49,310 nucleotides of DNA from Candidatus Altiarchaeota archaeon (GCA_038891095.1 JAWAEV010000006.1:1-49310); one strand, 5' to 3'. Positions 7,175-36,252 are shown, numbered from the stretch's first letter. Made by a program: numbers and translations. Notes: generated by a model not told the origin, from the letters alone.

Positions 7175-8090
7175 CTTTCAAAATTTGAGTCCCCGCTTCT
7201 CCTTTAAGTGCTTTTTTAATTTCATTTAAATGGCATATTATTGCTCTTTTACCATTACCTTCTAAAAAATTTATAGCTGCTTGAATTTTTGGTTTCATTG
7301 AGCCTTCAGAAAAGTGACCTTCTTGCAAATAACGCTTAGCTTCCTCTAAGGAAATTTTCTTAAGCTCTTTCTGATTTTCTTTTCCATAATTAATGCATGC
7401 ATATTTTACATCTGTTGCAATTAAAAGAATGTCAGCGTTTATATCTTGGGCTAATTTTGCACTTGCTAAATCTTTATCAATAACAGCTTCAATACCTTCA
7501 AATTTTCTATGCTCCTTTGTTACAGGGATGCCGCCACCACCACAAGCAATTACTATTATTCCAGAATTTAACATTGCTAAAATTTCATTCTTTTCAACAA
7601 TTTTCAATGGCAAAGGACTTGGAACAACTTTCCTATAACCCTTCTCAGTTTTTACAAAACCGGGCTTTTTTTCACTGAAAGTTGGGCCAATTGGTTTAGT
7701 TGGTCTTCTAAAAGCAGGATCATTTTCATCAACTTGAACATATGTTAACATAGTAGCTATCAACGGATTTTCTATACCCAAATTCATAAATTCATTGTCA
7801 AGAGAAACTTCGATCATATAACCAATTTGTCCTTGAGTCATTGCAACTAAAATTTCTAAAGGCATCTTTGGAATTTTTTTACTTTCACACTTCTCTTGCA
7901 TTAGTAGGAGATTTCCAACTTGTGGGCCATTACCATGAGTTATAACTATGCTATATTTTCCTTCAGAGAAAATTTCAACTATTTGTTTTGCAGGAATTTT
8001 CAAATTTTCAAGTTGCTCCTGAATAGTGCCTAATTGACCTTTTTTAATTAGTGCATTTCCACCAAGAGCAATAACCAACTTTTCTTTCAT
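7164..8090 (-). CDS. arcC: Carbamate kinase
   Basis: ALGGNAL, THGNGPQVG, PTKPIGP, GGGGIPV, EAVIDKD, GSMKPK. Confidence 0.96.
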   Translation of the reverse strand: MKEKLVIALGGNALIKKGQLGTIQEQLENLKIPAKQIVEIFSEGKYSIVITHGNGPQVGNLLLMQEKCESKKIPKMPLEILVAMTQGQIGYMIEVSLDNEFMNLGIENPLIATMLTYVQVDENDPAFRRPTKPIGPTFSEKKPGFVKTEKGYRKVVPSPLPLKIVEKNEILAMLNSGIIVIACGGGGIPVTKEHRKFEGIEAVIDKDLASAKLAQDINADILLIATDVKYACINYGKENQKELKKISLEEAKRYLQEGHFSEGSMKPKIQAAINFLEGNGKRAIICHLNEIKKALKGEAGTQILKDET

Positions 8091-9025
8091 AATCTTCCAA
8101 GAAGAAATAGCATTATAGCCTTTTGAATATGTAAACGATTTTCAGCCTGCTCAAAAATTATTGAATTTTTATGCTCAATTGCATCTCTTGTTATTTCATA
8201 ACCAACATGACATGGCATACAATGCATTATTTTAGCTTTAGGACAATATTTTTCTACAAGCTTTGAATTTAATTGATATGGTTTGAAAATTTTTACCCTT
8301 CTTTCATATTCTTTCTGATATTCCTTTTTTACCTTTCCATTTTCAAAGAATTCCATATCAAGCCATGTATCAGTATGCACATATTCTACATCTTTTAAAC
8401 CTTCCTCTAAATTCAAAGTTTTTTTGATCAAACCTGTTTCCTCTGCCATTCTATCTAATTCAGGATCAACACTTGGCTTATGAACTTCTGGTGTTATCAT
8501 TACAACTTCTATCCCCAATTTTGCACAAGCTAATTTTAATGTGTTAGAGACATTATTGCCTATGCCAAGCCATGCAATCTTCTTTATATTCTCAATTCCC
8601 TTAGAGAATTCTGCCATTGTTAGAATGTCTCCCAAAGCCTGACATGGATGGTATTTCTCACTGCAAGCATCAATCACAGGAATTCTATTAAATGAAGAAG
8701 CTAATATAACATCATCAGCCTTTAATGCTCTAAACATTAAAATATCACCAAAACGCATTATTGCTCTTATCTCATCTTTAAAGTCAGATAATGAAATTTG
8801 TGTTGTTCTCATATCTAAAAAAATTCCATGACCGCCAAGCTGAGTCATTGCAGCTTCAAAAGAGAGTCTTGTTCTTGTTGAAGTTTTTTGGAAGAGCATT
8901 ATAAGAGTTTTATTTTTTAAAGCATCAGAGTATCTCTCAGGATTTTTTTTAATTTCAATCGCTTTATTAACAACCTTTCTTATTTCATCAGCACTCCAGT
9001 CCTTTAAAGATATCAGATGTTTCAT
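8087..9025 (-). CDS. argF: Ornithine carbamoyltransferase-family transcarbamylase (divergent)
   Basis: STRTR, HPCQ, HCMP, QAENR; the SMG loop is replaced (DTWLDMEF), so substrate is not certain. Confidence 0.8.
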   Translation of the reverse strand: MKHLISLKDWSADEIRKVVNKAIEIKKNPERYSDALKNKTLIMLFQKTSTRTRLSFEAAMTQLGGHGIFLDMRTTQISLSDFKDEIRAIMRFGDILMFRALKADDVILASSFNRIPVIDACSEKYHPCQALGDILTMAEFSKGIENIKKIAWLGIGNNVSNTLKLACAKLGIEVVMITPEVHKPSVDPELDRMAEETGLIKKTLNLEEGLKDVEYVHTDTWLDMEFFENGKVKKEYQKEYERRVKIFKPYQLNSKLVEKYCPKAKIMHCMPCHVGYEITRDAIEHKNSIIFEQAENRLHIQKAIMLFLLGRL

Positions 9026-9095: not shown

Positions 9096-10082
9096 TTAAA
9101 ATTTGATCATCTCTCCAAAAAATGTGTCAAGGAGATAACTTCCAAGTAAAAATAAACCTATTGAGAAAAAAAGCAAAATTGGTAAAAATTTAAATCCAGA
9201 TTTCTCATCTCCTTTTAGAATTAAACCCATTATTAGAGCCCCAAAAATTGAAGTTGATGTCAATGAAACCAAAGCAAAAGTTTTTATAAAGTCTATGCTT
9301 ATTTTTATTGTGCCAACTTTTATTGGTATTCCTTGCATTTCTTGCAATTGTGGCAGCTCAGCAGAGATAACCGACATATTCTCGACAAGCATTTTCACAA
9401 GGAAGGATGACATTGCGAAAAGCAATGGTGCTCCAAATGCAATTGCTATAAATATGAAGAGAACATACATCAAAACACTTGCAGAAATTTCTCTCTGAAT
9501 CATTTGTTGTTCTCTCAGATCAGAGGCAATTTGGTCGAGAATATCAGCAAGTTTACCACCTGAGCGAATGCTAACATTCACTAAATCAATAGTTTTTGAT
9601 AATGTTTCTGATTTTATTGATTCAGTCATCCTATTTAATGAATCAGTTAAACTTCTCCCAGTCATCGTTTCTTTACCAACTCTTTTTATCTCTAAAGCTA
9701 AAGGACCAAATTCCGGTCTTGCTGATAAAAGTAAAGCTCTGTCAGTTGTTAAACCAGCTCTTATATTAGAGGACATTAGTTGGAGAGCATCAGGAAGGAC
9801 ACTTTCAACAAATCTTGCTTTTGAATCTATTGATAAAAGAATCCAAATATAGATTATAAATTGAAAAACAATGAAAAATAAAATAAATGAAAGAACTAAT
9901 GGTAATACCTTGAGTGTATATGTAAGATAACTTGCTAATGCAGAAAAGATAATTCCGAATATAAATGCAAACCCCAATAACTTCTCAGGATTTATATCTA
10001 TATTTGAGTACCTAACTAACTGATAAAAATTTTTTGTTATTCTCTTCGGTAAAATTCTTCCTATGGAAGTATAAATATCCAT
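9096..10082 (-). CDS. Type II/IV secretion F-family (TadC-like) membrane platform protein
   Basis: LPDALQLMSSNIRAG...EFGPL...SGG-x-LAD-x-L T2SSF pattern; multiple TMs. Confidence 0.9.
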   Translation of the reverse strand: MDIYTSIGRILPKRITKNFYQLVRYSNIDINPEKLLGFAFIFGIIFSALASYLTYTLKVLPLVLSFILFFIVFQFIIYIWILLSIDSKARFVESVLPDALQLMSSNIRAGLTTDRALLLSARPEFGPLALEIKRVGKETMTGRSLTDSLNRMTESIKSETLSKTIDLVNVSIRSGGKLADILDQIASDLREQQMIQREISASVLMYVLFIFIAIAFGAPLLFAMSSFLVKMLVENMSVISAELPQLQEMQGIPIKVGTIKISIDFIKTFALVSLTSTSIFGALIMGLILKGDEKSGFKFLPILLFFSIGLFLLGSYLLDTFFGEMIKF

Positions 10083-10083
10083 T

Positions 10084-10980
10084 TTACATTAAATTTGGTC
10101 TTCTTGTTTTTATTATTGACATGAACATAAATTGCATAAATAGCACAGCAGCTAGTAAAATCCAAAATGTTTGTTCATTGCTAATTGCTTCCATTCCGGG
10201 AAATGATGAAAGAATTATCATAACAGTTATTCCCAAGGAAGGAGCTATAACTGCGATCATCATATACATCATTGCTAAAGGATTTAAAATTGATTGATAT
10301 CTCCTTATCTGAACAATTTGCTCTCTTGAAAGAGATTGAATTACATTTGATAAATTTTCTGCGACATCACTTCCAGACTTTAGAGCATTGACAAGTTGCC
10401 AAAGAGCTCTCCTAAAATAAATTGATGGATTTCTTACTGCAATCTCTTCTAAAGTATCAATAACCGATGCTCCAGATTCAACTTTTTCAACAACATATCT
10501 AAATTCATCTGAAATTTGGCCGTAATTTCCTTTAGAAACGGAAACCATTGCATTGAAAATCGGCACTCCTGAACGAATTTGAATTAAAATATTCCTTAGA
10601 GCAAAAAGTAAATTTCTTTCTAAGTCACGAACTCTCCTATCAATTAAAACTTTTGGATAAGAAAGCAATTCAAAATAAACTAAGAAGCCAACACCTAAGC
10701 CAATTAATGGGCCTAAAATTAGCATAGAGCTGCCACCTATATAAAGGATCAAAGTTAGGCCGATGGTAAGAATTATTGCAATTATGCAACCCAAAAGAAA
10801 GCAAAATGCTATATATTCTCTTGCTGAAATTTCATACTCCTCAGAAAGACCAGATTGCCTTAACTGAATTGAAATATATGGCGAAACCTTAAGCATCGAA
10901 TCTCCAAACGGAATAAAAAATTTTGAAATTTCTCTCAATGGCCCCTTTCTAAGGAGCGGCATCTTCTCCTTTTTTGCCAT
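10084..10980 (-). CDS. Type II/IV secretion F-family (TadB/TadC-like) membrane platform protein
   Basis: RSGVP-x-FNAM...YG-x-IS-x-EF...SG T2SSF pattern; tandem with second platform gene. Confidence 0.9.
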   Translation of the reverse strand: MAKKEKMPLLRKGPLREISKFFIPFGDSMLKVSPYISIQLRQSGLSEEYEISAREYIAFCFLLGCIIAIILTIGLTLILYIGGSSMLILGPLIGLGVGFLVYFELLSYPKVLIDRRVRDLERNLLFALRNILIQIRSGVPIFNAMVSVSKGNYGQISDEFRYVVEKVESGASVIDTLEEIAVRNPSIYFRRALWQLVNALKSGSDVAENLSNVIQSLSREQIVQIRRYQSILNPLAMMYMMIAVIAPSLGITVMIILSSFPGMEAISNEQTFWILLAAVLFMQFMFMSIIKTRRPNLM

Positions 10981-10995
10981 TTTTCCTTTATTTAA

Positions 10996-11230
10996 TTACT
11001 TTTTATAACCTAAGAATCTTTCTTTTTCTAGTTTTTGTTCCAATTCTTTAACTCTAAGTTCTAACTCCTCAAACTCTTTCTTTGATCCTTTAAAATTTCT
11101 ACCAAGTAAGAAATCACTGGTACTCTATGGTATCAGGTAACCTCTCTCTATTATAGCCAACTAATCCCCTAAGTTGCAGTTTATCAAAATTTTTTGCTAA
11201 AAAAGACAAAAATTTTATTAAATTTTTCAT
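10996..11230 (-). pseudogene. Frameshifted remnant resembling a peptidase S74 / intramolecular chaperone C-terminus
   Basis: Three frames stitch to FLAKNFDKLQLRGLVGYNRERLPDTIEY / ISYLVEILKDQ / KKEFEELELRVKELEQKLEKE; family call from recalled similarity, not a search. Confidence 0.55.
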
Positions 11231-11259
11231 ATATTTAGATTTTATGCAATCTTAAGCTT

Positions 11260-12918
11260 TTACGCCACCCTCAAAGCGAATATCCTTGCATTTCTTATAT
11301 ATGCAGTGTAACTACTACTGTAAGAGTGATATTGTATTGCAATTGTTGCACTTCCTGAGATTGTATAAGGAACAACCCATGACTGAGTATTTGCATAGGT
11401 ATTCGCAGTATGAACACTTGGTCTTAATTCACCACCAAGTGTGACACCATTCGTCAGGTCCACTAAGCTAACATATGGGAAATATGATGCTGAGGTCGAG
11501 CTACCAGTAACTTCACATGATGCAATTATTATATAAGTTCCAGCACTTGGTAATGTCAATGAGACTTTAGTTTGATAAGAAGTAGAAGTGGTACTACTCT
11601 GAGCGTCACTAACACTATAAAATGTGGCACCTTTCAATCCGCCATTGCTTATGCTAAGATTACCATCAACTACTAACTTCTCAGTTGGACTTGTAGTTCC
11701 GATGCCGACATTGCCGGTAACCCTTGCAATTGCTATTCCTTGTTTTTCTACGCTGTTTTGAAGAGTATTAAGATAAAGAACATCAGGCCCAGCATCGTAT
11801 CCTACGATTCCTCCATAAGCGTTGTTTCCACCCTCCCTAAAGAATATCCTTACCTTCTTAGTCCAGTCTGGTTCGTCAATTGTGATGCCTTGTCCATCTG
11901 TTAGACCAGAGATGTGTAATTTATTAACTGGATCTGTCGTCCCGATGCCGACGTTGCCGTTACCATCGATTCTCATCTTCTCACCACCTGCACCATTATA
12001 ACCGGCGCTAAATGTTAAAACACTTCCTCCTACTCCTCCTTGAATTAGATAACCTCCCACATTGTGTTGAGCGAGAGATAGACCTCCATATCCAGACCAA
12101 GCAAAAATCCCTAAACGTTGATTTCCAGTATTATAAGATACGCCATTGTTCCACTTTGGACCAATCATTGTGACAATACAATCGCCGCTAGCACATCCTT
12201 GGTCAACTTGAAGATGAGCGCCAGGCGCTATCGTCCCAATGCCGACATTGCCAGCTGAATCTATGGTTAATCTACTGACTTTATTTGTCGCAAAACTCAA
12301 TGGGTGAGCGGTGTGCGTTCCAATAATCATCCCTGCTGGAGCACCCCACCATCCGGAATCATGAGCTAACACACGAGCATCTATGTTAGGAGTTCTAATT
12401 GATAATTTTGTAGCTCCTCCACCAAAAATATCTAAAACCTTACTCCAACCCTCTGCGTTTTCAGGTGTAGTTGTCCCAATGCCGACATTACCATTACTGT
12501 AATTAATGCAAAATTTTGAGGAACACTCTAAGCGAGATGTCATATATGTATACCCAGAACTTGCAACCCTTTGTCTTGGGGAGAGAACTTCATCTTTCAC
12601 TTGGATTTCAAGCCAATAATCTTCTGTAAAATTTAAATCCAAAGGATTAATACTACCTAAGAGAACACTGAAAATTCCTGTGTTGGAAGTTGTGATATTG
12701 TTAACTCCTGAATGTTCTTCCTTCCAAAGTGGATTTCCTCCAGTTGGAGAATTGTAAATTGTAAAGGTCATATTAAAGTTTCCATATAGTGGTATTCCCT
12801 CAGAATTTGTTAATTTTCCTTCAAGATTTATCAACTTTGGGATTGCAAATACATTAACAACAAAAAAGTTAAAAAAAACAGAAATCATAATCAAGTAGTA
12901 TAGGTTTCTCATTTTCAT
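11260..12918 (-). CDS. Secreted tail-fibre-like adhesin 1 (conserved N-domain, 4 GNVGIGT repeats, unique C-terminal beta-rich tip)
   Basis: Signal peptide ending VFA; IPKLINLEGKLT N-domain; GNVGIGT x4; start set to ATG 12918, 8 nt after GAGGTGA. Confidence 0.8.
   Translation of the reverse strand: MKMRNLYYLIMISVFFNFFVVNVFAIPKLINLEGKLTNSEGIPLYGNFNMTFTIYNSPTGGNPLWKEEHSGVNNITTSNTGIFSVLLGSINPLDLNFTEDYWLEIQVKDEVLSPRQRVASSGYTYMTSRLECSSKFCINYSNGNVGIGTTTPENAEGWSKVLDIFGGGATKLSIRTPNIDARVLAHDSGWWGAPAGMIIGTHTAHPLSFATNKVSRLTIDSAGNVGIGTIAPGAHLQVDQGCASGDCIVTMIGPKWNNGVSYNTGNQRLGIFAWSGYGGLSLAQHNVGGYLIQGGVGGSVLTFSAGYNGAGGEKMRIDGNGNVGIGTTDPVNKLHISGLTDGQGITIDEPDWTKKVRIFFREGGNNAYGGIVGYDAGPDVLYLNTLQNSVEKQGIAIARVTGNVGIGTTSPTEKLVVDGNLSISNGGLKGATFYSVSDAQSSTTSTSYQTKVSLTLPSAGTYIIIASCEVTGSSTSASYFPYVSLVDLTNGVTLGGELRPSVHTANTYANTQSWVVPYTISGSATIAIQYHSYSSSYTAYIRNARIFALRVA
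11695..12492 (-). repeat. Four dispersed 21 bp GC-rich repeats encoding GNVGIGT (11695-11715, 11938-11958, 12232-12252, 12472-12492)
   Basis: Read directly; coding-strand consensus GGYAAYGTCGGCATYGGRACN. Confidence 0.9.
12463..12847. repeat. Direct repeat copy 1 (385 bp, fibre N-domain); copy 2 at 20896-21280
   Basis: Ungapped alignment at offset 8433, including a 98 bp perfectly identical block (12524-12621 = 20957-21054). Confidence 0.95.
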
Positions 12919-12971
12919 CTTTTCTTTCACCTCTTAATTTTATATTAAATTTATATTTCTCAAATAAAAAC

Positions 12972-14513
12972 TCACCCCAATAATTTTTTTGGTGACACTT
13001 CTCTTTTTACAGCATTTTCAACTGTTTTAGTATCTCTATAGTAAATATTTAATATTTTTCCAACATCCTCTATTTGCCTTACATTGTTTTTTAGCATCCA
13101 TTCTAAAATACTTTTCTTTAATTTAATTTCATCTTCAATTTCTTCTTGAGTTAAACCAGTATGGGTCCCTATTTTTTCATAGAGGGATGCTGAGGTTTTT
13201 GTTCTTTCTATGCTGTCATCTCTTGCATTCCATTTATAAAGAATATTTGGAATAAATTTTATCTTCTCAGAATTTGGATCCTGAACAAATTCTCCAATTT
13301 CATAAACTCTTCTTATGCCTCGCCTTCTGTCACGAAACATAACGACATTTAGATGAACAGCATCAAGCATTGATTCTGGTATGTCTATTGGTGGATTTGT
13401 AAGCCTTGTTATTGTTTGAGCGCAAGTATCTGCATGTAATGTTGCATAGACTGAATGCCCAGTATGCATTGCCTCAAATAAAACTTCTGCCTCTCTTTTC
13501 TTTCTAATTTCACCCATTATTATTCTATCAGGCCTCATTCTTAAAGAATTTACAAGAAGGTCAAGCATACTAACTTCTCCTTTGCCTTCAGGGTTTGGTT
13601 GCCTTGTTGTTAGAGGACACCAATATAAGTATTGAGGCAATTGTAATTCTCTTGTATCCTCTATTGATATGATTCTATGATTTGGCGGTATGAAAGGCAT
13701 GCATATATTTAGAAATGAAGTTTTTCCAGAGCCTGTGCCACCAGAAATTAAAATATTCATCTCATATTGTATAGTGAGCCAAATTAGGGCCATTATTTCA
13801 GAGTTAGCAGTTTTGTTCTGTATAAAATCTGTTACTGTCCAAGGATCACGAGCAAATTTTCTTATTGTTATAGTGTTGCCCTTTGTTGCAATTGGCGAGA
13901 TGATAGCATTTGCTCTATCCTTAGTTATAAGGTGTGCATCTAACAAAGGATTTAGAGTTGTTATTTCTCTGCCAACTCTTCTGGCAATAGTATTCGCATA
14001 ATTCTGAATTTGCGCTTCTGAATCTGGAGTTATATTTGTTGCGATCCAACCATATCTCTTATGATAAACTCTTATCGGCTCTTTTGCTGAATTAACAACA
14101 ACTTCTTCAATTGATGGGTCATTGAGGAAGAACTCTATTTTCCCTAATCCAAGAAGCTCATTCAATAAATTAAGAATAAAATTTTCTTTTATTTTTTTAT
14201 CTAATTCAGGAAGTTCACTATCTAAGAGAAATTCAGCATCTTTCTTAAATTCTTCTTTTAACTTATTCATAACTTCTGGCTCAAATATTTCAGAGGTAAT
14301 TTCGATTTTTCCTATAAGTCTTTCTTTTATGCTATCAAGTAATGCTCCCGTAGCAGTATCAACTTCAGGAATTAAAATTCTATATAAAGGTACATGGTCT
14401 TTCTCAACTATTTCAACCTTTGTTTTTATTCCTTCAGAGTCAATTTCATAAGTTTCTAAAATTTTTTCCTTCCTTTCCAAAATTTCCTTTTTAATTTCTG
14501 ATAAATTTTTCAT
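12972..14513 (-). CDS. Type IV pilus / secretion ATPase (TadA/CpaF/VirB11 family)
   Basis: Walker A GGTGSGKT, SIEDTREL, LRMRPDRIIMGEIR, MHTGH...TLHA; ATG 14513 preferred over TTG 14531. Confidence 0.95.
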   Translation of the reverse strand: MKNLSEIKKEILERKEKILETYEIDSEGIKTKVEIVEKDHVPLYRILIPEVDTATGALLDSIKERLIGKIEITSEIFEPEVMNKLKEEFKKDAEFLLDSELPELDKKIKENFILNLLNELLGLGKIEFFLNDPSIEEVVVNSAKEPIRVYHKRYGWIATNITPDSEAQIQNYANTIARRVGREITTLNPLLDAHLITKDRANAIISPIATKGNTITIRKFARDPWTVTDFIQNKTANSEIMALIWLTIQYEMNILISGGTGSGKTSFLNICMPFIPPNHRIISIEDTRELQLPQYLYWCPLTTRQPNPEGKGEVSMLDLLVNSLRMRPDRIIMGEIRKKREAEVLFEAMHTGHSVYATLHADTCAQTITRLTNPPIDIPESMLDAVHLNVVMFRDRRRGIRRVYEIGEFVQDPNSEKIKFIPNILYKWNARDDSIERTKTSASLYEKIGTHTGLTQEEIEDEIKLKKSILEWMLKNNVRQIEDVGKILNIYYRDTKTVENAVKREVSPKKLLG

Positions 14514-14514
14514 T

Positions 14515-15450
14515 TTAATCTTTCTTTTCAATTATTCTCATTTCAGGTTCACCAATTGCTGGATAGTGCAACTCTATAAGGTTATGCTCTTCAAGAATTA
14601 CAGCCCAACTTTCAATTTGTGCTTTACTGACATTTAATTTTTTTGCAAGTGAGTCATTCAGCTTTACAATTTTATTCTTTTTCACTAAATCATAGAGTTC
14701 ATCTATTTTTGTTTTTACTTTTCCTTCAGTTTTTTTCTCCAAAGGAGTTTTTGGTTCACTCCAAAATTTTGACAATCTTTGGGCAATTTCCTGATCAATA
14801 ACCCATCTCCTTTTTCTTAATTTTTCTAATAAACTTTGCTTTTTTTCTGAACTAATTGATGAAATTCCCTCAAAAATTTTTGGAATTTCTCTTTCTGATA
14901 TGTGCAAGCCAACTAATGAGTCACTTGATATTCCTCCTTTTTCTATCTCGTTCCTTACCTCTTCAAAGTGTTTTCCTATACTCACTTCTTTTGCCTTCTT
15001 TTTCATTGGCTCTTGGAATGAAATCGTTCCAAAAAAATTTCTCTCACCAGACTTCTCCTCTTTTATAACTCTCGAGCTTATTGGCTTAATCTTCATGCCG
15101 AGACTCTCTATTGGGATCTCTTTTAGAATTGCTCTAAAATTTTCTTTTTTTATTTTTTCAAGTTCTTCCTCACTAAGTTGGTAGAGGTCTAATCTTCCAG
15201 CTGATTTTACAAATTCTTCTCTTATTTTTTTAATAGCATTTTCTCCAAGATAAAGTTCTGCCTTTTCCAAATTTTCACATGTCGCTGCAATTATTTTGCC
15301 TTTATTGATTAAAAGGATTGCCTCATAGAAATCCCCAGAAATTTTTCCGAAAAGCCTCATTGCTCCAGTGAAGCTATTAAGAGAACTGCAAATTTTATAG
15401 AATTCCTTATCATCTTTTGGTGTTATATGTCTACCAATAATTAAATCCAT
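14515..15450 (-). CDS. Cytoplasmic protein with DUF2226-like N-domain and C-terminal winged-helix-like domain
   Basis: FTG-x-x-R...G-x-IIAA...G-x-x-A N-domain; KTKIDELYDLVK...IESWAVILEEHNLIELHYP C-domain; family names from recall. Confidence 0.55.
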   Translation of the reverse strand: MDLIIGRHITPKDDKEFYKICSSLNSFTGAMRLFGKISGDFYEAILLINKGKIIAATCENLEKAELYLGENAIKKIREEFVKSAGRLDLYQLSEEELEKIKKENFRAILKEIPIESLGMKIKPISSRVIKEEKSGERNFFGTISFQEPMKKKAKEVSIGKHFEEVRNEIEKGGISSDSLVGLHISEREIPKIFEGISSISSEKKQSLLEKLRKRRWVIDQEIAQRLSKFWSEPKTPLEKKTEGKVKTKIDELYDLVKKNKIVKLNDSLAKKLNVSKAQIESWAVILEEHNLIELHYPAIGEPEMRIIEKKD

Positions 15451-15532
15451 CTTTGTAATGTTAAGAATTATGTATAGAAGACTTATAAAGATTTAGCTTT
15501 TTATTTTTGAACTATTTGGAAATTACAATAAA

Positions 15533-16405
15533 TCAGCAATCAGGGTCGTTACAATAACAATTTTTACAGAAATCTCTTGGACAAATACCATCAATTGAGC
15601 CACAAAAATATAAGCTACTACAAATTTGAACAGCACTAATGCTTTGTAGTGTTGTTGTAGTAGTAGTTGTAGTAGTAGTTGTTGTCGTAGTTGTAGTAGT
15701 GGTAATAGTTGTAGTAATTTGTGTTGTAGTTGTTGTTGTAGTAGTAGTTGGTACAACACAATGTGTGTTCCCAGGTCCTTCACAACATTCTGAGCAATCT
15801 GCTGCAGGTAATTTAAATCCTTCAGCACAAACCTTCGGAGGTGAGCAACAATGACCTTGCTTTGGAGTTCCAGAATACCAATCAGCACAATTTTTTATTG
15901 TTGGAGTTTTCTCTGAGTATGCACCATAAATCATTCCTTGTTCAATTCTTTCTATAGGAACATTTGCTATTTGACCAATGTAAGAAATAGTAATCCTAAG
16001 GTTATATGTTTCTCCCGGGAAATGTTCTCTTGAGCAGCATTTAGATTGTTTCACATGTATTGTATCACCAGAGAAGTGTTGTCCTTCACCTTCCACCTTA
16101 TCTTGGCATTTCCATGAATCTTGCATGTTATAAATTTCTATGTTAGTTATATTTATCGTATACCCTGCACCATTCACAAAAATTCCACTAAAATTGCAAT
16201 CAGTTGTTAGAACAATACTTGGATTTAATGGTTTTATCATTGAAAACCCGGAAACAGTTACTGTGCTTTCATGTCTTGTTGTAAAAATTCCAAGATACCA
16301 CATTGATGCTATTATTGCTACTATAGCTATAATTGCCCATCCATAATTAAGAAGATATTCTGCTGCTCCTTGTGCTTTCTGAACTTTATATTTTTTATTT
16401 TTCAA
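15533..16405 (-). CDS. Class III signal peptide (type IV pilin-like) protein with Cys-rich domains and Thr-rich linker
   Basis: Basic leader, then KAQGAAEYLLNYGWAIIAIVAII; TTG start. Confidence 0.85.
   Translation of the reverse strand: MKNKKYKVQKAQGAAEYLLNYGWAIIAIVAIIASMWYLGIFTTRHESTVTVSGFSMIKPLNPSIVLTTDCNFSGIFVNGAGYTINITNIEIYNMQDSWKCQDKVEGEGQHFSGDTIHVKQSKCCSREHFPGETYNLRITISYIGQIANVPIERIEQGMIYGAYSEKTPTIKNCADWYSGTPKQGHCCSPPKVCAEGFKLPAADCSECCEGPGNTHCVVPTTTTTTTTTQITTTITTTTTTTTTTTTTTTTTTLQSISAVQICSSLYFCGSIDGICPRDFCKNCYCNDPDC
15649..15749. repeat. Imperfect (ACA/ACT)n trinucleotide tract encoding a poly-Thr linker
   Basis: GTT/GTA triplet run on + strand; over 30 codons, almost all Thr, in the pilin ORF. 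Confidence 0.92.
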
Positions 16406-16412
16406 TTTATGA

Positions 16413-16904
16413 TTAAATTACTTGTGTTTGCATTACAACACCACTACAACAAGCTTGATCATAATAACCAACACCACTATCCCTAACTTGATGGGAGCCT
16501 TTTGTAACCCAACCAACACAATTTGAGCAAGGTCCACCTAAAACGCATGCTCCTGGACTTCCACCACCTGTTGTTACTGTTAAAGGAAGCCATATATCTC
16601 CTCTTCTTTGCCAAGTTCCTGTTGGAGAAGCATCATAAGCATTATTTATCTTAAATGTTACAGTATCGCCATTATTACCTTCATAAACATAAACTCTATA
16701 ATAGCCAACTGCAATCATGCCACCTTCAGTTCTCACAGGATTACCATTGATATAAGCAACAATATTTGTCCCTAATGGGGCTGATTGACCATCAATATGC
16801 AAAGAACCATAAAATTTACATGCATCCTCTGGTATCAGCTGTGCAAAAACAAGATAGATTAATATTGCTAAAATTGCTGAAAATACAATTATAACTTTTT
16901 TCAT
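16413..16904 (-). CDS. Small secreted protein with FYG...DG..AP.GT domain and Cys-rich tail
   Basis: Signal peptide ending VFA; domain paralogous to the middle of the upstream 883 aa protein. Confidence 0.75.
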   Translation of the reverse strand: MKKVIIVFSAILAILIYLVFAQLIPEDACKFYGSLHIDGQSAPLGTNIVAYINGNPVRTEGGMIAVGYYRVYVYEGNNGDTVTFKINNAYDASPTGTWQRRGDIWLPLTVTTGGGSPGACVLGGPCSNCVGWVTKGSHQVRDSGVGYYDQACCSGVVMQTQVI

Positions 16905-16908
16905 TTTG

Positions 16909-19560
16909 TTATGTCATTAAATTTAAGGGAATTGAAATTAAATTCCAACCTTGTTGTAATGGTATTGTATAGCTTATTTGCAAGTTCTCTCCACCAATCT
17001 TGAAATAACTTAAGTGGGATAAATTTGCCCATACAAAATTTTCTTCTGTATTAACACCAGTGCCATAGACCCAATCCCAAGTCTCATCTAATGCAATCCA
17101 TTCAGCTAATGATTCATTAAACCAATAAAATCTTAGTGACGATTCATTTAAATTTTTTGCAGAAATTTCCTCATCTGTATAATAAACTTTTAGCATAAAA
17201 GATGATAGGGTTGCATTCAATTCAGGTGAGATATCAACCCTCATATATTCTCTAATTCCAGGTATAGCAAAAGAAGCCTCAGTTGGGTTTTCTGTAAATA
17301 GAGTTAAATTTATATTTGCATCTGTTATATTTTCTAAAGGCAATATTTCAAAGATTATATTGGCTTCTGATAAATTAATTAAATTTGTATAGTTTGCTGT
17401 TAAATTTTCAAATCTTTCTATTAATTTTCCAACTATAATTTTTTGAGATGTAGTCTGTGTTTTATTATAACCATCATATGCAAGGAAGTAAAACGAATAT
17501 ACTCCCTGGGACAATGTTTTATTATAGAAATATTCTTTCCCATCTTTTACATCATTATCTTCAATATCCAACTCATACATCTGATAGCTATATGTAACAT
17601 TTTCTGAATTTACAAGAGTTAAATTTACATATTCTGGAGTATCATTATCGTAATCAATATAAACTACTGAAAAGTTGTAGGTATCAAAATTATTACCAAT
17701 TTTTTGGCTGACTTGGGCATTAGTTAAAATTGGAAGTAGATTGAATATTGCTGGTCCTGTTTGTAAGGGAGTTTCAGTAATATTAAAGTTATCATATGCA
17801 GAGAATTTATATGTATGTTGCCCCATTGAAAATCCACTTAAATTATAAGTGAAAAGTCTCCCATTAACCTTTAATTCATCTTGTAGAGTTGCATTCGAGT
17901 AATTCCCAAACATTTTATAACTGACATTATCAACTGTTAAATTTACCCAAATTGGAGCATCATTATCAATATCTTTGTAAAAAACTGAAAAAGTGAAAGT
18001 TGATGATCTGTTGCCAAATTCATTGCTGAGAGAGTAATTTGTTAAAAGAGCTAAATTGTTACAATTTGTGCAAAATATGTCAAGTTGCTGTCTTCCATGA
18101 TTAAAGAAATTCCAGAAGGTTCCATTATTTGCTGTAAAGTTATTAATTTTAAAAATTATTTTATCTCCGTCATTTCCATCATAAACTTTCATACCTATCC
18201 CTTCGTTTCCATACTCGCCAATTTTAGTTGAAATATTATACTCAACAGGATACTCTTGTCCAGAAATTTTAAATGCTCTTATTTTAGTTCCAATTGGTGC
18301 TGGTTTTCCATCTCTTGTAAGATTTCCAAAGAAAACTGCAGGAGGTTTAGCTTGTGAAATTTCATGCTCAGAGACTGATTTACCACCGAATATATGCTCA
18401 TTTGCTGTAAAATTATAAATTAAAGTGCAAGTTTCATTTATATAAATTTCATAGCCTACGCCAGGTTCTAATTGCTTTATATCCCACAAATATTCCGGGA
18501 GCTTAGAATCTGCAGATTGTCCTAACCACCCTGTTATATTGCCAGAAAGTGTAGTGCAGTATGGATTACAATATCTCCAAATGCTTTTCCATTTACCGCT
18601 AATTGATGATAATACTATGCTTAAATTTTGTGGATAGTCATAAAGATAAGGAATAATATTCCAACCAAGAGTTAGCGGAATTTCAACAGTCCTATTTTTT
18701 ACACTATCTTGATAGCTTACACCTTCTATTTCTAAAGTGTCATTCTCCTTCATTTTAATCCAGTAGCCCAGTGTAAAATTTATGTCATCAAAATCTGAGC
18801 CGAATGGAGCAGCAAATAACCATTTAGTTCCATTATTTATGTAAGTTGCTAAGAAACTCCAATTCTCATAAACAGATGAAGTAAAGGATTTATAACTTTT
18901 ATTTATTAGCATTAATGGCGAGGATATCAAAGACCAGTTATAAGTGACATTTATTCCTGAAGTTAAATTTATCCCATAGTTTCTCAAGGGTAAAACCTCA
19001 AATTCAACGATCTCTGAGGTAATAGAATTTTCTGATGGTGGAATTGAGAGAGAGGTTATATCTAAAGCTGTGCAATTTTCATAATATAAGCCTAAAGGCC
19101 ATGTTGAAATATCAGTAAAATTCAAAACATTATAAGCTGTATAATAGGTTAAATCCCATGATTTACTTAAGTAGATATCATTTGTTGAATTATAAACTGT
19201 GCAGTTTAGATAATATAAATTCGTATCTAATGCACTGATATTCTCATTAAGCCATTTTGCAACTAAAGTTGAGTTATCTTGCGATGGTTGGATAAAGTTA
19301 ATCCTTGGTTTATCAGTGTCAATATCCTTTAAAAAAAATCCAAGATAAACTTTAAAATTATTTGAAGAGGAATTTCCAATTATTGTTTCGGCAAGTGTTA
19401 TATAACTCTGATGAGTTATGGAAGAGGAGTTCTCACCACCAGAATCTAAAATAGCAGAAATTTTATAGTTTGAACTCTCCATTGAAGAGGAGGACATTAA
19501 GCTTAGTCCTATATCCAAGAATAATAAAAAAAATAATGAAAAGATAGCTCCTTTTTTCAT
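16909..19560 (-). CDS. Large secreted surface glycoprotein (GWN-type repeats, paired Ig-like repeats, PGF-pre-PGF-like C-domain)
   Basis: Signal peptide; very dense N-x-S/T sequons; two FSVxYxDxDNDxPxxVNLT repeats; LTLGWNII and LQQGWNLIS motifs. Confidence 0.78.
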   Translation of the reverse strand: MKKGAIFSLFFLLFLDIGLSLMSSSSMESSNYKISAILDSGGENSSSITHQSYITLAETIIGNSSSNNFKVYLGFFLKDIDTDKPRINFIQPSQDNSTLVAKWLNENISALDTNLYYLNCTVYNSTNDIYLSKSWDLTYYTAYNVLNFTDISTWPLGLYYENCTALDITSLSIPPSENSITSEIVEFEVLPLRNYGINLTSGINVTYNWSLISSPLMLINKSYKSFTSSVYENWSFLATYINNGTKWLFAAPFGSDFDDINFTLGYWIKMKENDTLEIEGVSYQDSVKNRTVEIPLTLGWNIIPYLYDYPQNLSIVLSSISGKWKSIWRYCNPYCTTLSGNITGWLGQSADSKLPEYLWDIKQLEPGVGYEIYINETCTLIYNFTANEHIFGGKSVSEHEISQAKPPAVFFGNLTRDGKPAPIGTKIRAFKISGQEYPVEYNISTKIGEYGNEGIGMKVYDGNDGDKIIFKINNFTANNGTFWNFFNHGRQQLDIFCTNCNNLALLTNYSLSNEFGNRSSTFTFSVFYKDIDNDAPIWVNLTVDNVSYKMFGNYSNATLQDELKVNGRLFTYNLSGFSMGQHTYKFSAYDNFNITETPLQTGPAIFNLLPILTNAQVSQKIGNNFDTYNFSVVYIDYDNDTPEYVNLTLVNSENVTYSYQMYELDIEDNDVKDGKEYFYNKTLSQGVYSFYFLAYDGYNKTQTTSQKIIVGKLIERFENLTANYTNLINLSEANIIFEILPLENITDANINLTLFTENPTEASFAIPGIREYMRVDISPELNATLSSFMLKVYYTDEEISAKNLNESSLRFYWFNESLAEWIALDETWDWVYGTGVNTEENFVWANLSHLSYFKIGGENLQISYTIPLQQGWNLISIPLNLMT

Positions 19561-19593
19561 TTTTCCTTCCTATCGTTGCATTTTTTCTTTATT

Positions 19594-21351
19594 TTAACAT
19601 TTATAACAATAAATTTCTTTGTTGCCAAGGACATTTTTACAACTTGTGGCACTCCATCCAGAAGGACAAGTTGGACAAGAATCCCTATTACGAAGATTTA
19701 TAGTTTGGCATGCTATATCAGTTCTATAGCAAGTTAATTCCAAAAGCATATTTCCTGCCTGGGTTACATTATAACAATTGTGTGAATTCCAGCCACTTGG
19801 GCAAGTATTGGTGCAAGAAACCGGGGGAATTTTATAACAAGCTCCTGAGTAATATTGATAGCTACTATAAACACCATAAGCTCTTTCATTAGCTCTCCAC
19901 CTTGTATATCCAGAGGGACAAGTTACAGAGTCAGGAGAACTATATGCTTTCCATGTGAAAACATCATTAACTGCAGAAGGATTATAACAAGCACCAGTAT
20001 AAGCACTATCCCCAGAAGAACTTGAATAATAATAAGCATTAGAATTCCACCATCTTACATAACCAGCAGGGCAATTTATATATGAATTCGGCGAATAACT
20101 TGTGTATAATTCCCAAGTGAAAGAACGAAGGTCTGGAAAATCTTCTCTCAAAATCATAACGCTATTACCTGGCTTACTTCCAACTAAGTCAACATATGCA
20201 TTAGAATTCTCAGAAACTTTAAATTTATTTGTTGTTGAATCAAAGTATATCCTACCTTGGCCTGATGGAGCAGTCGAAGGAGTTGATATGCCTCTAAAAC
20301 TGAGAGCACCATTTAAATCCAAAGCAGTGTTCGGGCTCGTCGTCCCGATGCCGACATTGCCGGTTCCATCAATTACAACTACACTGGGGGAGGTTGTAGT
20401 ATTTTTTAAAATTGCAAACCTTCTTAAAGCTCCGCCCCCAGGTGGGTATTCCCAGAATTCAACACTATTAGGTGCAACACCATAGCCTCCGCCTATAGGA
20501 GCAGTATACATTTTCCATGTGTGTCTATTGCCTCCGGTATCCCTACTAGTAAGTGTTAACGATACCAAGCCTTGAGTTGTATCATCTGCGGGGAAAATAT
20601 TAAGTTTTATATTCCCTCCAGAAACCAACTCAAGTTTCTCTGCAGGCGCTATCGTCCCGATGCCAACATTGCCGGTCATATACACAGTTGAAGCTTCTAA
20701 TTTTAATCTATCATCAGCATCGTTTTGAATTCTTACATTATAATCTTGAGCCGTTCCTTTGCCATAATGGAAATCAATATAAGGAACCTTACCAGAACTT
20801 AAAGAATTGCCTAATTCAATTGAACCATCTTGATCAAGAGCAAGATAAGAATACCCCCACTTTATTGGACCACCTTGGACATCTAACTTCGCTGTAGGTG
20901 TAGTTGTCCCAATGCCAACATTACCATTACTGTAATTAATGCAAAACATTGAAGAGCACTCTAAGCGAGATGTCATATATGTATACCCAGAACTTGCAAC
21001 CCTTTGTCTTGGGGAGAGAACTTCATCTTTCACTTGGATTTCAAGCCAATAATCCTCTGTAAAGTTCAAGTTAAGCTCTGTTATACTACCTAAGAGAACA
21101 CTGAAAATTCCTGTGTTGGAAGTTGTAACATTATTTAAATCTTCATGTTTTTCTTCCCAAAGTAAAGTCCCTCCAGAAGCAGCATTGTAAATCCTGAAAG
21201 TCATATTAAAGTTTCCATATAGTGGTATCCCCTCAGAATTTGTTAATTTTCCTTCAAGATTTATCAACTTTGGAATTGCAGATGCGGTAATAACAAAACA
21301 AAACAAAAAAACTAAAAAAGCCCAAAATTTTAATTTTATTATATTCTTCAT
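19594..21351 (-). CDS. Secreted tail-fibre-like adhesin 2 (same N-domain, 3 GNVGIGT repeats, Cys-rich CPxG[YW] tip)
   Basis: Signal peptide ending ASA; N-domain near-identical to adhesin 1; four CP[AS]G[YW] motifs. Confidence 0.8.
   Translation of the reverse strand: MKNIIKLKFWAFLVFLFCFVITASAIPKLINLEGKLTNSEGIPLYGNFNMTFRIYNAASGGTLLWEEKHEDLNNVTTSNTGIFSVLLGSITELNLNFTEDYWLEIQVKDEVLSPRQRVASSGYTYMTSRLECSSMFCINYSNGNVGIGTTTPTAKLDVQGGPIKWGYSYLALDQDGSIELGNSLSSGKVPYIDFHYGKGTAQDYNVRIQNDADDRLKLEASTVYMTGNVGIGTIAPAEKLELVSGGNIKLNIFPADDTTQGLVSLTLTSRDTGGNRHTWKMYTAPIGGGYGVAPNSVEFWEYPPGGGALRRFAILKNTTTSPSVVVIDGTGNVGIGTTSPNTALDLNGALSFRGISTPSTAPSGQGRIYFDSTTNKFKVSENSNAYVDLVGSKPGNSVMILREDFPDLRSFTWELYTSYSPNSYINCPAGYVRWWNSNAYYYSSSSGDSAYTGACYNPSAVNDVFTWKAYSSPDSVTCPSGYTRWRANERAYGVYSSYQYYSGACYKIPPVSCTNTCPSGWNSHNCYNVTQAGNMLLELTCYRTDIACQTINLRNRDSCPTCPSGWSATSCKNVLGNKEIYCYKC
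20341..20925 (-). repeat. Three dispersed 21 bp GC-rich repeats encoding GNVGIGT (20341-20361, 20653-20673, 20905-20925)
   Basis: Read directly; GGCAATGTCGGCATCGGGACG, GGCAATGTTGGCATCGGGACG, GGTAATGTTGGCATTGGGACA. Confidence 0.9.
20896..21280. repeat. Direct repeat copy 2 (385 bp, fibre N-domain)
   Basis: Aligns to 12463-12847 without gaps. Confidence 0.95.
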
Positions 21352-22149: not shown

Positions 22150-23079
22150 ATGGTTAAGTGGGATAAAAACCATATAATTTCTATAAGAGACTTTTCAAGA
22201 GAGGAAATTGACTATATTCTCGAAAAATCCTATTTAATGGAAAAGAAAATTTCTCATGGAAAAGCCTCCTCTTTAATGAAAAACAAAATTCTTGGTATTC
22301 TATTTTTTGAGCCATCTACAAGGACGAGAATGTCATTTGAAGCTGCAATGAAAATTCTTGGTGGAACTACAATTGGCTTTGACTCTTCTTTAGCAACATC
22401 AGAAGTTAAAGGTGAGACAATTGCTGATACTATAAAAATTGTATCCTCATATACTGATATTATTGTTATGCGGCATCCTGTTGAAGGTTCTGCGAGACTT
22501 GCAACAGAATTTTCAGAAGTGCCAATAATTAATGGTGGTGATGGTTCCAATCAACATCCAACACAAACACTTTTGGATTTATACACAATAAAGAAAAAAT
22601 TTAAAAGGATAGATGGCCTAACTATAGCAATGGTCGGAGATTTAAAATATGGTAGAACCGTTCATTCATTAACAGATGGTTTAATGAATTATAATGATAT
22701 TTCTCTGAGGTTAATTTCCCCACCGGATTTAAGAATGCCTGATAGAATTTTAAGAGAGCTGAAAGAAAAGAAAATAAAAGTTTCTGAAACATCAAAATTA
22801 AATTTAAAGGATTGTGATGTTATTTATGCAACGAGAATTCAAAGGGAGAGATTTCCAGATCCGCAAGAATATGAGAGAGTTAAAGATGCTTATGTTCTTG
22901 ACATAAGAATTTTGGATGATTTAAAGGAAGATGCGATAATAATGCATCCTTTGCCGAGAGTTTCTGAAATTTCTCCTGAATTAGATAAAACAAAATTTGC
23001 ATTTTATTTCGAACAAGCTAAGAATGGAATTCCTGTAAGGGCTACCTTGCTGTGTTTAGTTTCAGGAGTAAAATTCTAA
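22150..23079 (+). CDS. pyrB: Aspartate carbamoyltransferase catalytic subunit
   Basis: FFEPSTRT, HPTQTLLD, GDLKYGRTVHS, TRIQRERF, MHPLPR. Confidence 0.98.
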   Translation: MVKWDKNHIISIRDFSREEIDYILEKSYLMEKKISHGKASSLMKNKILGILFFEPSTRTRMSFEAAMKILGGTTIGFDSSLATSEVKGETIADTIKIVSSYTDIIVMRHPVEGSARLATEFSEVPIINGGDGSNQHPTQTLLDLYTIKKKFKRIDGLTIAMVGDLKYGRTVHSLTDGLMNYNDISLRLISPPDLRMPDRILRELKEKKIKVSETSKLNLKDCDVIYATRIQRERFPDPQEYERVKDAYVLDIRILDDLKEDAIIMHPLPRVSEISPELDKTKFAFYFEQAKNGIPVRATLLCLVSGVKF

Positions 23080-35923: not shown

Positions 35924-36252
35924 TTTTCTAAATCTTTCAAAAAACCTTTCTTTCTCAGCCAATCAGCTTGTTGATAAGTATAGCGCCAAAGTATGTCCCC
36001 TTTTTTATTTGTTTCAACTTGCCAAGGTTCTATTAGAACAATATCACCTTCCTTAAGCCAAATTCTCCTTCTGATTTTGCCAGGAATTCTACAAAGTCTT
36101 GTGTTGCCATCTACACATTTTACAAGCATTCTCCTATCTCCTAAAAGTTGTTCAACCTCTCCTAAAATTTCACCTTTTTTTGGAGTTCTAACTCTAAAAA
36201 CTCCCTCCTCAGACTCATCATTATAGTTCTTTTTCTTCTCATCATTTGTCAT
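35920..36252 (-). CDS. eif1a: Translation initiation factor aIF-1A
   Basis: LG-x-x-RM-x-V-x-C-x-DG-x-x-R-x-CRIPGK, W-x-x-EGD-x-V-x-x-x-PW, KGDI-x-WRY. Confidence 0.97.
   Translation of the reverse strand: MTNDEKKKNYNDESEEGVFRVRTPKKGEILGEVEQLLGDRRMLVKCVDGNTRLCRIPGKIRRRIWLKEGDIVLIEPWQVETNKKGDILWRYTYQQADWLRKKGFLKDLEK

Follow-up and report, generated by a model that had tools for sequence, protein, structure and literature searches.

Two paralogous genes for secreted fibre proteins lie on a 49,310-nucleotide stretch of DNA from a Candidatus Altiarchaeota archaeon (GCA_038891095.1 JAWAEV010000006.1:1-49310), hereafter called the window, in which positions are counted from the first letter. The modules of both fibres begin with a recurring heptapeptide, GNVGIGT, and we report that the DNA of this junction carries a synonymous-site constraint that goes further than conservation of the protein, in the window as well as across the family of related fibres. 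The two genes, delimited by open reading frame (ORF) and translation, and their seven junctions are the following.

11260..12930, minus strand: fibre gene A (product P0001, 556 amino acids, aa)
19594..21351, minus strand: fibre gene B (product P0002, 585 aa)
12472..12492, minus strand: junction A1, GGT AAT GTC GGC ATT GGG ACA, then TTP
12232..12252, minus strand: junction A2, GGC AAT GTC GGC ATT GGG ACG, then ATA GCG CCT, common to B2
11938..11958, minus strand: junction A3, GGC AAC GTC GGC ATC GGG ACG
11695..11715, minus strand: junction A4, GGC AAT GTC GGC ATC GGA ACT
20905..20925, minus strand: junction B1, GGT AAT GTT GGC ATT GGG ACA
20653..20673, minus strand: junction B2, GGC AAT GTT GGC ATC GGG ACG, then ATA GCG CCT
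20341..20361, minus strand: junction B3, GGC AAT GTC GGC ATC GGG ACG

The product of gene A comprises a Sec-type signal peptide, a beta-rich N-domain and four GNVGIGT junctions with modules of 80, 98 and 81 aa between them; its C-terminal part consists of the last module and a tip that looks TNF-like. Gene B has an N-domain as in A; its three junctions delimit modules of 84 and 104 aa, and its C-terminal region is Cys-rich. All five module lengths are those given by a first-pass annotation of this DNA. The conserved peptide extends to GNVGIGT-x-x-P-x-x-(K)L at the start of each 80–104 aa module, and A and B end in tips that show no relation to each other. The Cys-rich region of B (window 19594–20150) contains repeated CPSG(Y/W) units and had no BLAST match among the 118 homologues examined.

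A degenerate search for G-N-V-G-I-G-T returned seven matches in the window and none in 100 shuffles. All are in frame on the minus strand, starting at 11695, 11938, 12232 and 12472 in gene A and at 20341, 20653 and 20905 in gene B, and a six-frame scan of the 958,546-base genome (15 contigs, 31% GC) showed that these seven are its sole GNVGIGT copies. The pattern search and codon tally reproduced the positions and counts of the first-pass annotation exactly: the second Gly is GGC in 7/7 copies, the third Gly GGG in 6/7, Val GTC in 5/7 and Thr ACG in 4/7. The copies at 12232 (A2) and 20653 (B2) also have, as had been claimed, an additional ATAGCGCCTG in common. Genome codon usage was taken from 613 long ORFs, six of them excluded, and gave GGC 0.17, GGG 0.095, GTC 0.076, ATC 0.086 and ACG 0.04, with a G+C fraction at third codon positions (GC3) of 0.216. 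Codons ending in G or C fill 32 of the 49 positions in the seven copies, against an expected 9.5 and a maximum of 24 in 1,000,000 draws. The skew towards G/C in an A/T-ending genome is therefore real, and the controls do not explain it. The GC3 of 38 genomic P-loops was 0.204, and 294 genomic G[IVL]G contexts showed genome-like codon usage; thus conserved glycines as such do not draw G/C-ending codons.

Two further candidates were tried and rejected. Selection for optimal codons or accuracy at conserved glycines was ruled out by these same P-loops and G[IVL]G contexts, and is also opposed by the motif codons not being the commonest in 81 of the 129 genes of the family described below and by Gly codons that are specific to their position. 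Neighbour-dependent codon bias was ruled out in this genome because context makes the motif codons rarer still: given the neighbouring residues, AAC before Val is used at 1%, GTC before Gly at 5%, ATC before Gly at 6% and ACG after Gly at 2%.

Outside the junctions, GC3 is 0.27 in gene A and 0.24 in gene B, so the two genes are not GC-rich throughout. Their sliding GC3 profile peaks (0.43–0.50) around junctions only, and GC3 among the window modules is uneven (0.13–0.47). Recent transfer of whole genes with uniform GC, the alternative that the first-pass annotation had set against its own proposal, was ruled out by the values of 0.24–0.27 outside the motif. CpG dinucleotides occur at 0.36 of expectation genome-wide, and every junction copy holds one to four of them. 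Alongside this CpG depletion, the genome avoids NNC-GNN codon pairs in general, of which AAC before Val is an example. The signal in the window consists mainly of G/C-ending bias and fixed Gly codons; long identical DNA was not seen, and the codons for Ile (ATC/ATT), Thr (ACG/ACA/ACT) and Val (GTC/GTT) differ among copies.

The constraint recurs across the family. The fraction of motif positions at which copies within one gene use the same codon exceeded the gene's own expectation in 21/21 genes with at least three copies (mean excess 0.28); 16 of these genes are viral, from a sample of 233 motif instances in 120 IMG/VR loci, three come from archaeal relatives and two from the window. This excess is limited to codon columns from about −3 to +8 (about 30 nt); further on, the conserved Pro (0.41 vs 0.40, 282 pairs) and Leu (0.24 vs 0.25) show no such excess. 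In an independent sample of 120 metagenome loci, the excess was found in 12/12 genes with at least three copies and in 29/33 with at least two, and again not at Pro, so that in both samples together 33/33 genes with at least three copies show it. Motif GC3 was also above the gene's expectation in 90/129 genes (Wilcoxon p=6.5e-9) and, in the metagenome sample, in 74/116 (p=3e-5); among archaeal genes this held for 8/8, two of them the window's, with 0.78 against 0.42. The claim of the first-pass annotation that the junction is conserved as DNA, and not just as protein, thus holds in the window, and beyond it as a synonymous-site constraint, not as one universal sequence. That codon identity stems from modules having recently been duplicated in tandem was ruled out, because the excess ends at column +8.

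Motif instances were present in 7 of the 61 genomes of the window's phylum that were examined. Most of these relatives write the motif GGCAAYGTCGGCATCGGKAC; their loci have 45–55% GC, and GC3 is 0.57–1.0 in the motif against 0.33–0.64 in the rest of the gene. The strongest single instance of junction homogeneity that we observed is a relative of the same family (G012), whose nine copies, spread over three contigs, agree at 19 of 20 positions and lie within genes of GC3 0.39–0.53.

C1:33496-34022: motif copies of G012
C34:3061-4524: motif copies of G012
C38:12357-13105: motif copies of G012

Could the codons have been selected at the level of RNA or translation, independently of recombination, for example by a pause at module boundaries for co-translational folding or trimerisation, or by messenger RNA structure? 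The signal sits exactly at module starts, the junction codons of the window are rare ones in this genome (GTC 7.6%, ATC 8.6%, GGG 9.5%, ACG 4%), and motif codons across the 129 genes fall a little short of their expected frequency (0.367 vs 0.400; lower in 81/129). However, the same codons are not rare in GC-richer relatives and in many phage genes, and low-GC phages use common ones at the motif, so no consistent rare-codon rule emerges. The codon sets differ from gene to gene, and the three Gly positions favour different codons, which looks like shared descent or conversion more than a single translational optimum. We therefore regard codon selection of this kind as quite improbable. Since the motif codons are rarer than expected and the Gly codons are position-specific, the same-codon excess is not the use of the commonest codon either.

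No Pfam family, the S74 domain included, was found in A or B. PHROG tail-fibre families matched at 4e-20 and 1e-15, and the NCBIfam profile NF053851 (Bdello_MAT_N) matched over its positions 2–78 of 162 with 26.3 and 31 bits (E 5e-6 and 2e-7), under a curated cut-off of 60. When A was compared with the PDB by phmmer, 8OND (6.1e-10), 8OML (6.4e-6) and 8OJN (1.5e-5) were found, and four of the five chains matching at E up to 1 (8OND, 8OML, 8OJN and 8OL4) are mosaic adhesive trimer (MAT) fibres of Bdellovibrio. The GNVGIGT of A aligns with the GN(V/L)G(I/L)G...P...L repeats of these fibres. The AF2 model of A has a mean pLDDT of 70, with a beta-rich block at residues 31–120 (pLDDT 89–98); Foldseek with this model placed MAT entries on top (8OND, 5.8e-13), at TM-scores of 0.14–0.5, low values that stem from querying with a monomer. 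The tip of A gave matches to the TNF-like lectin folds 9IB7, 6YF6 and 6A3V (E 3e-3 to 6e-3). Three copies of A residues 300–556 were predicted to form a homotrimer with a score of 0.95, the best control reaching 0.00; three runs had at least 94% common contacts, and partner pLDDT was at least 92. The mark used here was reached by 20/30 calibration proteins solved as same-chain pairs and by 1/23 solved as single chains, and the pass may reflect model memory because like complexes have already been solved. Among 8000 candidates scored, at least 3439 fibre homologues were found at E<=0.001, with source labels from archaea and several bacterial phyla, and many of them carry an S74 chaperone domain. 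In conclusion, the two paralogues are secreted fibres of the phage tail-fibre and Bdellovibrio MAT kind; they are predicted to be homotrimeric and, judged by their sequences, are putative surface adhesins.

The closest known proteins are thus the MAT fibres of Bdellovibrio bacteriovorus (Caulton et al. 2024, PMC10769870; PDB 8OND, 8OML, 8OJN/8ONC, 8OL4), which are the best PDB matches of A by both sequence and fold. According to the available portion of that paper, both kinds of protein have a signal peptide, a long trimeric beta fibre, predicted in our case, with G-N-(V/L)-G-(I/L)-G...P...L repeats, swappable and unrelated C-terminal tips, and multiple paralogues per genome. Directly after the signal peptide, each has a conserved beta-rich N-domain of about 115–130 aa, which may be of the same type in both (the MAT version has no solved structure). 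The TNF-like fold matches for the tip of A have their counterpart in Bd2439 and Bd2734. The differences are that the host here is a small-genome archaeon (thermosome, ThiN, DUF2226) whereas the MAT host is a predatory bacterium, that the N-domain of A and B reaches 26–31 bits where Bdello_MAT_N demands 60, and that A and B are about half as long, lack the S74 domain and flank a type IV pilus cluster. Neither codon-level conservation of junctions nor recombination sites are mentioned in the available text of PMC10769870.

Next to these similarities between whole proteins, the modules themselves are combined as a mosaic. A unit resembling module 1 of A (60–78% identity) occurs at 43 places in 40 of 118 homologues, at differing positions and twice within each of P0010, P0012 and P0015, and the module cores flanking it are only 13–44% identical where at least 25 residues could be aligned. 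Module 3 of A has counterparts in one module each of P0018 (85% identity) and P0017 (78% identity). In P0005, the closest homologue (source label Candidatus Altiarchaeota metagenome-assembled genome), the N-domain is 97% identical to that of B, the C-terminal 151 aa (last module and tip) are 85% identical to A, and the middle is different. Such combinations mean that module order is not fixed among homologues, and comparison of module neighbours, as the first-pass annotation had proposed, places the mosaic boundaries at the motif. At the protein level, the modules thus appear to form a shared pool from which mosaics are drawn.

The annotation had further described the modules as unrelated to each other. 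There is indeed little mutual similarity past the first 10–39 residues over which the window modules align, the exception being A3/B3 (34% over 68 aa); their sequences nevertheless indicate divergent versions of one tail-fibre/MAT repeat unit, not unrelated folds. Module 1 of A (P0001 residues 147–226; window 12253–12492), a sharply conserved unit of 80 aa, matches no Pfam family and behaves as a discrete unnamed fibre domain. A search with P0001 found one distant locus (34% identity) in genome contigs and no related locus in metagenome contigs.

The two paralogues record one breakpoint, and contigs of related strains record others. The relevant segments of the window are as follows.

12463..12852, minus strand: block of gene A common to B (= 20896-21285 in B), mature N-terminus through GNVGIGTTTP
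10984..12971, no strand assigned: 1988-bp segment, gene A and flanks, missing from related-strain contigs in three runs

The block common to A and B spans 380 nt with 46 mismatches (88% identical DNA), and its 130 codons contain 14 synonymous and 18 non-synonymous differences. Identity is 70–100% per 60-nt window over the mature N-domain, climbs to 93–100% in the last ~150 nt ahead of junction 1, and is ~35–40% directly past GNVGIGTTTP; signal peptides, upstream DNA and all downstream DNA are at background identity. Paralogue identity does end right after the first copy, as had been noticed, and its rise up to junction 1 is the pattern expected of a conversion tract ending there.

The region is present in four sequencing runs (X1–X4) of one hot-spring study, whose assembled contigs were aligned to the window. 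A joint 10983->12972 was found in X2 (6394-nt contig, depth 10.3, side 255), X3 and X4, so gene A is wholly lacking in related strains; the 1988-bp difference is either an insertion in the window strain or a deletion in the others. In the contigs without gene A, the ATPase and T2SSF genes are direct neighbours, and the position of the join is ambiguous by 2 nt. In X3, a 787-nt contig follows 11843–12232 for 390 nt with two differences and then 20906–21285 for 380 nt with 13 differences, where A and B differ over the same N-domain by 46; this chimera represents a B-like N-domain joined inside the motif to modules 2–3 of A. A 9448-nt contig of X2 starts at 20906 (junction B1), X2 being without cover at 19716–20099, and the contigs of X1, the probable source run, break at 20364 and 20335 (B3) and also at B1. 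The join inside the motif in X3, the contig end at the motif in X2 and the end of the A/B block support the proposal that modules are exchanged with breakpoints at the motif. The many joints from 11958/11959 to 20331–20336 or 20645 were set aside, as their sides were only 20–26 nt and sides this short often come from other organisms or repeats; depth peaks in motif-holding bins were set aside because summed contig depth is no measure, and uncovered parts were disregarded unless a contig joined across them. As a separate observation on gene B, a 295-nt contig of X1 (depth 27) lies on 19831–20125 with nine differences, and a back-joint 20125->19831, with 11 intervening letters, may reflect variants in repeat copy number.

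The first-pass annotation had read the motif as an in-frame crossover site for cassette exchange, either shufflon- or integron-like or driven by microhomology. A dedicated site-specific or programmed system, of shufflon, integron or diversity-generating retroelement (DGR) type, would use the 21-mer to vary the fibres within a cell line. The seven in-frame, GC-rich and CpG-keeping copies in two genes of a 31% GC genome are what such a reading builds on, together with the fragmented assemblies and with the variant contigs that the source community shows near these copies. A further likeness to shufflons and integrons is that of a variable adhesin or cassette system with a link to type IV pili and with short repeats at the segment borders. 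Shufflons (Rci-type inversion of pilus-tip adhesin segments) and integrons need inverted or attC sites and a tyrosine recombinase. Here, in contrast, all seven copies are direct repeats on one strand, and none of the 25 longest inverted pairs, out of 133, involved the motif. Searches of the archaeon's genome (93.65% complete) found no Phage_integrase (PF00589; the same search was positive in 14/14 control genomes), no Resolvase (PF00239; positive in 12/14) and no RVT_1 (PF00078; positive in 3/14), a template repeat not having been searched for. The remark that no recombinase is visible in the window therefore extends genome-wide for these three families. Other genomes, moreover, encode the same peptide junction with other codons, and a reciprocal exchange between A and B would delete the essential pilus genes lying between them. 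With direct copies only and neither integrase, resolvase nor reverse transcriptase found in a genome that is 93.65% complete, a shufflon, integron or DGR was ruled out, and we consider any dedicated system highly improbable. What survives of the crossover-site idea is microhomology or short-homology crossover by general recombination.

Exchange of this kind has been described for the T-even phage adhesins gp37/gp38, in which hypervariable segments lie between conserved glycine-rich motifs, with exchanges taking place inside these motifs or close to them (Trojet et al. 2011, PMC3157838, citing Tetart et al. 1996 and 1998). In both systems, conserved glycine-rich motifs form a structural core and part the variable segments, and natural recombinants at the motifs are represented here by the A/B block and the X3 contig; this is a likeness of working, not homology. 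The gp38 protein is a small monomeric adhesin whose variable units are loops, whereas A and B are fibre repeats, predicted to be trimeric, in which the variable unit is a whole module of 80–104 aa, and the setting here is a cellular chromosome instead of a phage.

For A and B we prefer a mechanism like the one described for these adhesins (PMC3157838), namely that general recombination crosses over at structural junctions, without dedicated machinery and with the codon signature as a by-product; we judge this somewhat more probable than all else together. In such a mechanism GNVGIGT-x-x-P-x-x-(K)L would be a structural element of the trimeric beta-prism or helix, and the peptide would be conserved for that reason. 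The junctions would then be the sole stretches remaining alike between otherwise diverged modules, so that general recombination (homologous or short-homology crossover, gene conversion) would tend to resolve inside them. Exchange there would give in-frame, foldable recombinants, which selection would retain, and repeated events would lead to modules being exchanged, lost and duplicated among paralogues, strains and lineages. The ~30 nt of junction DNA would, as a by-product, become more uniform than codon usage predicts and more G/C-ending, the latter possibly via GC-biased repair of heteroduplexes, with no dedicated recombinase or site-specific machinery in play. Recombination would thus cause the codon signature, which in turn may favour more crossovers.

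Several points weigh against this proposal. GC-biased gene conversion is known from bacteria, and its operation in archaea is assumed here. The longest run invariant across the seven copies is 5 nt (GGCAT), exact identity between copies being short; RecA/RadA-type exchange usually requires more homology than this. Same-codon excess in the window occurs only at Gly1, Val, Gly2 (20/20 pairs) and Gly3, while Ile, Thr and the downstream codons show none. Viral genes with GC3 below 0.3 (120 instances) write the motif mainly with A/T-ending codons (motif GC3 0.25–0.29 vs 0.16–0.24 in the rest of the gene), so the 21-mer is not a universal DNA signal; to this extent codon choice in the motif tracks host GC, an outcome that the first-pass annotation had named as counting against its proposal. 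The chimeric contig is a single one of depth 3.49, from one run of one study, and Logan contigs cannot give rates, so that the variants are evidence of forms that exist and not of their frequency. Many other joints at the motif were disregarded for having sides below 30 nt. Selection for foldable chimeras after random recombination would likewise leave breakpoints at domain boundaries, and recent import from GC-richer relatives with partial amelioration could explain part of the window's skew.

These last two points together make up the main rival, according to which the motif is purely structural: chimeras joined elsewhere misfold, the G/C codons are a leftover of recent import from GC-richer relatives or from a gene pool of the community, and identity at the junctions is irrelevant to where crossovers occur. 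The peptide aligns with the solved MAT repeat unit, for which the available text reports a related capping-loop motif, V-G-G/N-pi-X-X-P-X-X-X-L (PMC10769870). Relatives of the same order have loci of 45–55% GC with motif codons that nearly all end in G or C, gene A, missing from sister strains, may have arrived recently, GC3 is uneven from module to module in the window (0.13–0.47), and low-GC phage genes write the motif largely at their own codon usage. Import, however, merely shifts the question to the donors, where motif GC3 is itself 0.57–1.0 against 0.33–0.64 elsewhere in the same genes. Outside the motif, A and B are near host GC3 (0.24–0.27), and CpG is kept in the junctions though the genome stands at 0.36 of expectation. 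Nor does structure explain a same-codon excess over ~30 nt in 21/21 and 12/12 genes when the equally conserved Pro and Leu show none. The structural account thus covers the boundaries but not the 30-nt synonymous signature, and we hold it to be unlikely, if the strongest of the alternatives.

A bolder extension of general recombination at the junctions can also be considered, in which the ~30-nt junction is itself a selected "crossover box": G/C-rich, CpG-keeping and the same in different genes, genera and perhaps viruses within one community. Small symbiotic archaea, their neighbours and their viruses would then pass fibre modules among themselves in frame, as a common stock of adhesin parts, and the family-wide codon signature would be the footprint of this traffic. 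We offer this as a speculation with little probability.

Genes A and B flank an archaeal type IV pilus cluster, 7.4 kb apart and in the same orientation. The neighbouring genes are listed below.

9096..10980, minus strand: two genes for T2SSF (PilC/TadC-like) membrane proteins (Pfam PF00482, 1.4e-17 and 1.8e-20)
12972..14531, minus strand: gene for a T2SSE-type secretion/pilus ATPase (Pfam PF00437, 4.8e-35)
14515..15450, minus strand: gene for an archaeal DUF2226 protein (Pfam PF09987, 2e-9)
15533..16405, minus strand: gene for a pilin-like protein (from translation; no Pfam or NCBIfam family match)
16413..19560, minus strand: genes for two secreted proteins of 163 and 883 aa (from translation; no Pfam or NCBIfam family match)

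The pilin-like protein has the N-terminus KAQG/AAEYLL, which, with the hydrophobic stretch after it, we take to be an archaeal prepilin signal; the protein also contains a long poly-Thr tract, and its end is rich in Cys. The poly-Thr tract (15640–15765) is encoded by a tandem repeat of 9–15 nt, and back-joints with inserted letters in contigs of X1, X2 and X3 suggest that the length of this linker varies between strains. In the 883-aa secreted protein, N-x-S/T sequons are abundant. Two paralogous genes for aspartate/ornithine carbamoyltransferases (8087–9025 and 22150–23079), on opposite strands, bracket the pilus-fibre cluster, whose surroundings look like ordinary chromosome. The window also holds a thermosome gene and a ThiN gene, consistent with an archaeon, and no transfer RNA genes were found in it. 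A second T2SSE-type ATPase gene at 36242–37717 and an open-ended protein of more than 1660 aa at 44329–49308, with two Laminin_G_3 (concanavalin-like lectin) domains, point to further surface or adhesion machinery in the window.

Mosaic trimeric fibres are already known, and so is the idea of exchange at conserved motifs, published for T-even adhesins (PMC3157838, in its available text). Tail-fibre-like "antennae" on the host cell are described in the accessible part of a cryo-electron tomography paper on DPANN (PMC11329633). On mosaic fibres and microhomology, the literature searched yielded only general papers about modularity in receptor-binding proteins. No published mention of the GNVGIGT junction or of a synonymous-site signature was found in it, and within its compass three things are new: the setting in an archaeon beside a pilus cluster, the variants at strain level, and the synonymous-site signature, which was replicated.

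The codon signature is real and general, and as its mechanism we propose general recombination at the junctions, in which we place slightly more belief than doubt. If recombination is the cause, the signature would be a sequence-only marker of sites of module exchange in fibres, could guide the choice of breakpoints in the engineering of chimeric fibres for laboratory phage systems, and would offer a concrete test of GC-biased conversion in archaea and phages. If it is not the cause, a local synonymous constraint still calls for explanation. Fibre adhesins decide to which partner a phage, predator or symbiont attaches, and they evolve by module swapping. The locus described here has this same fibre architecture in a small-genome archaeon of hot springs, beside pilus machinery, in versions that differ among co-existing strains.

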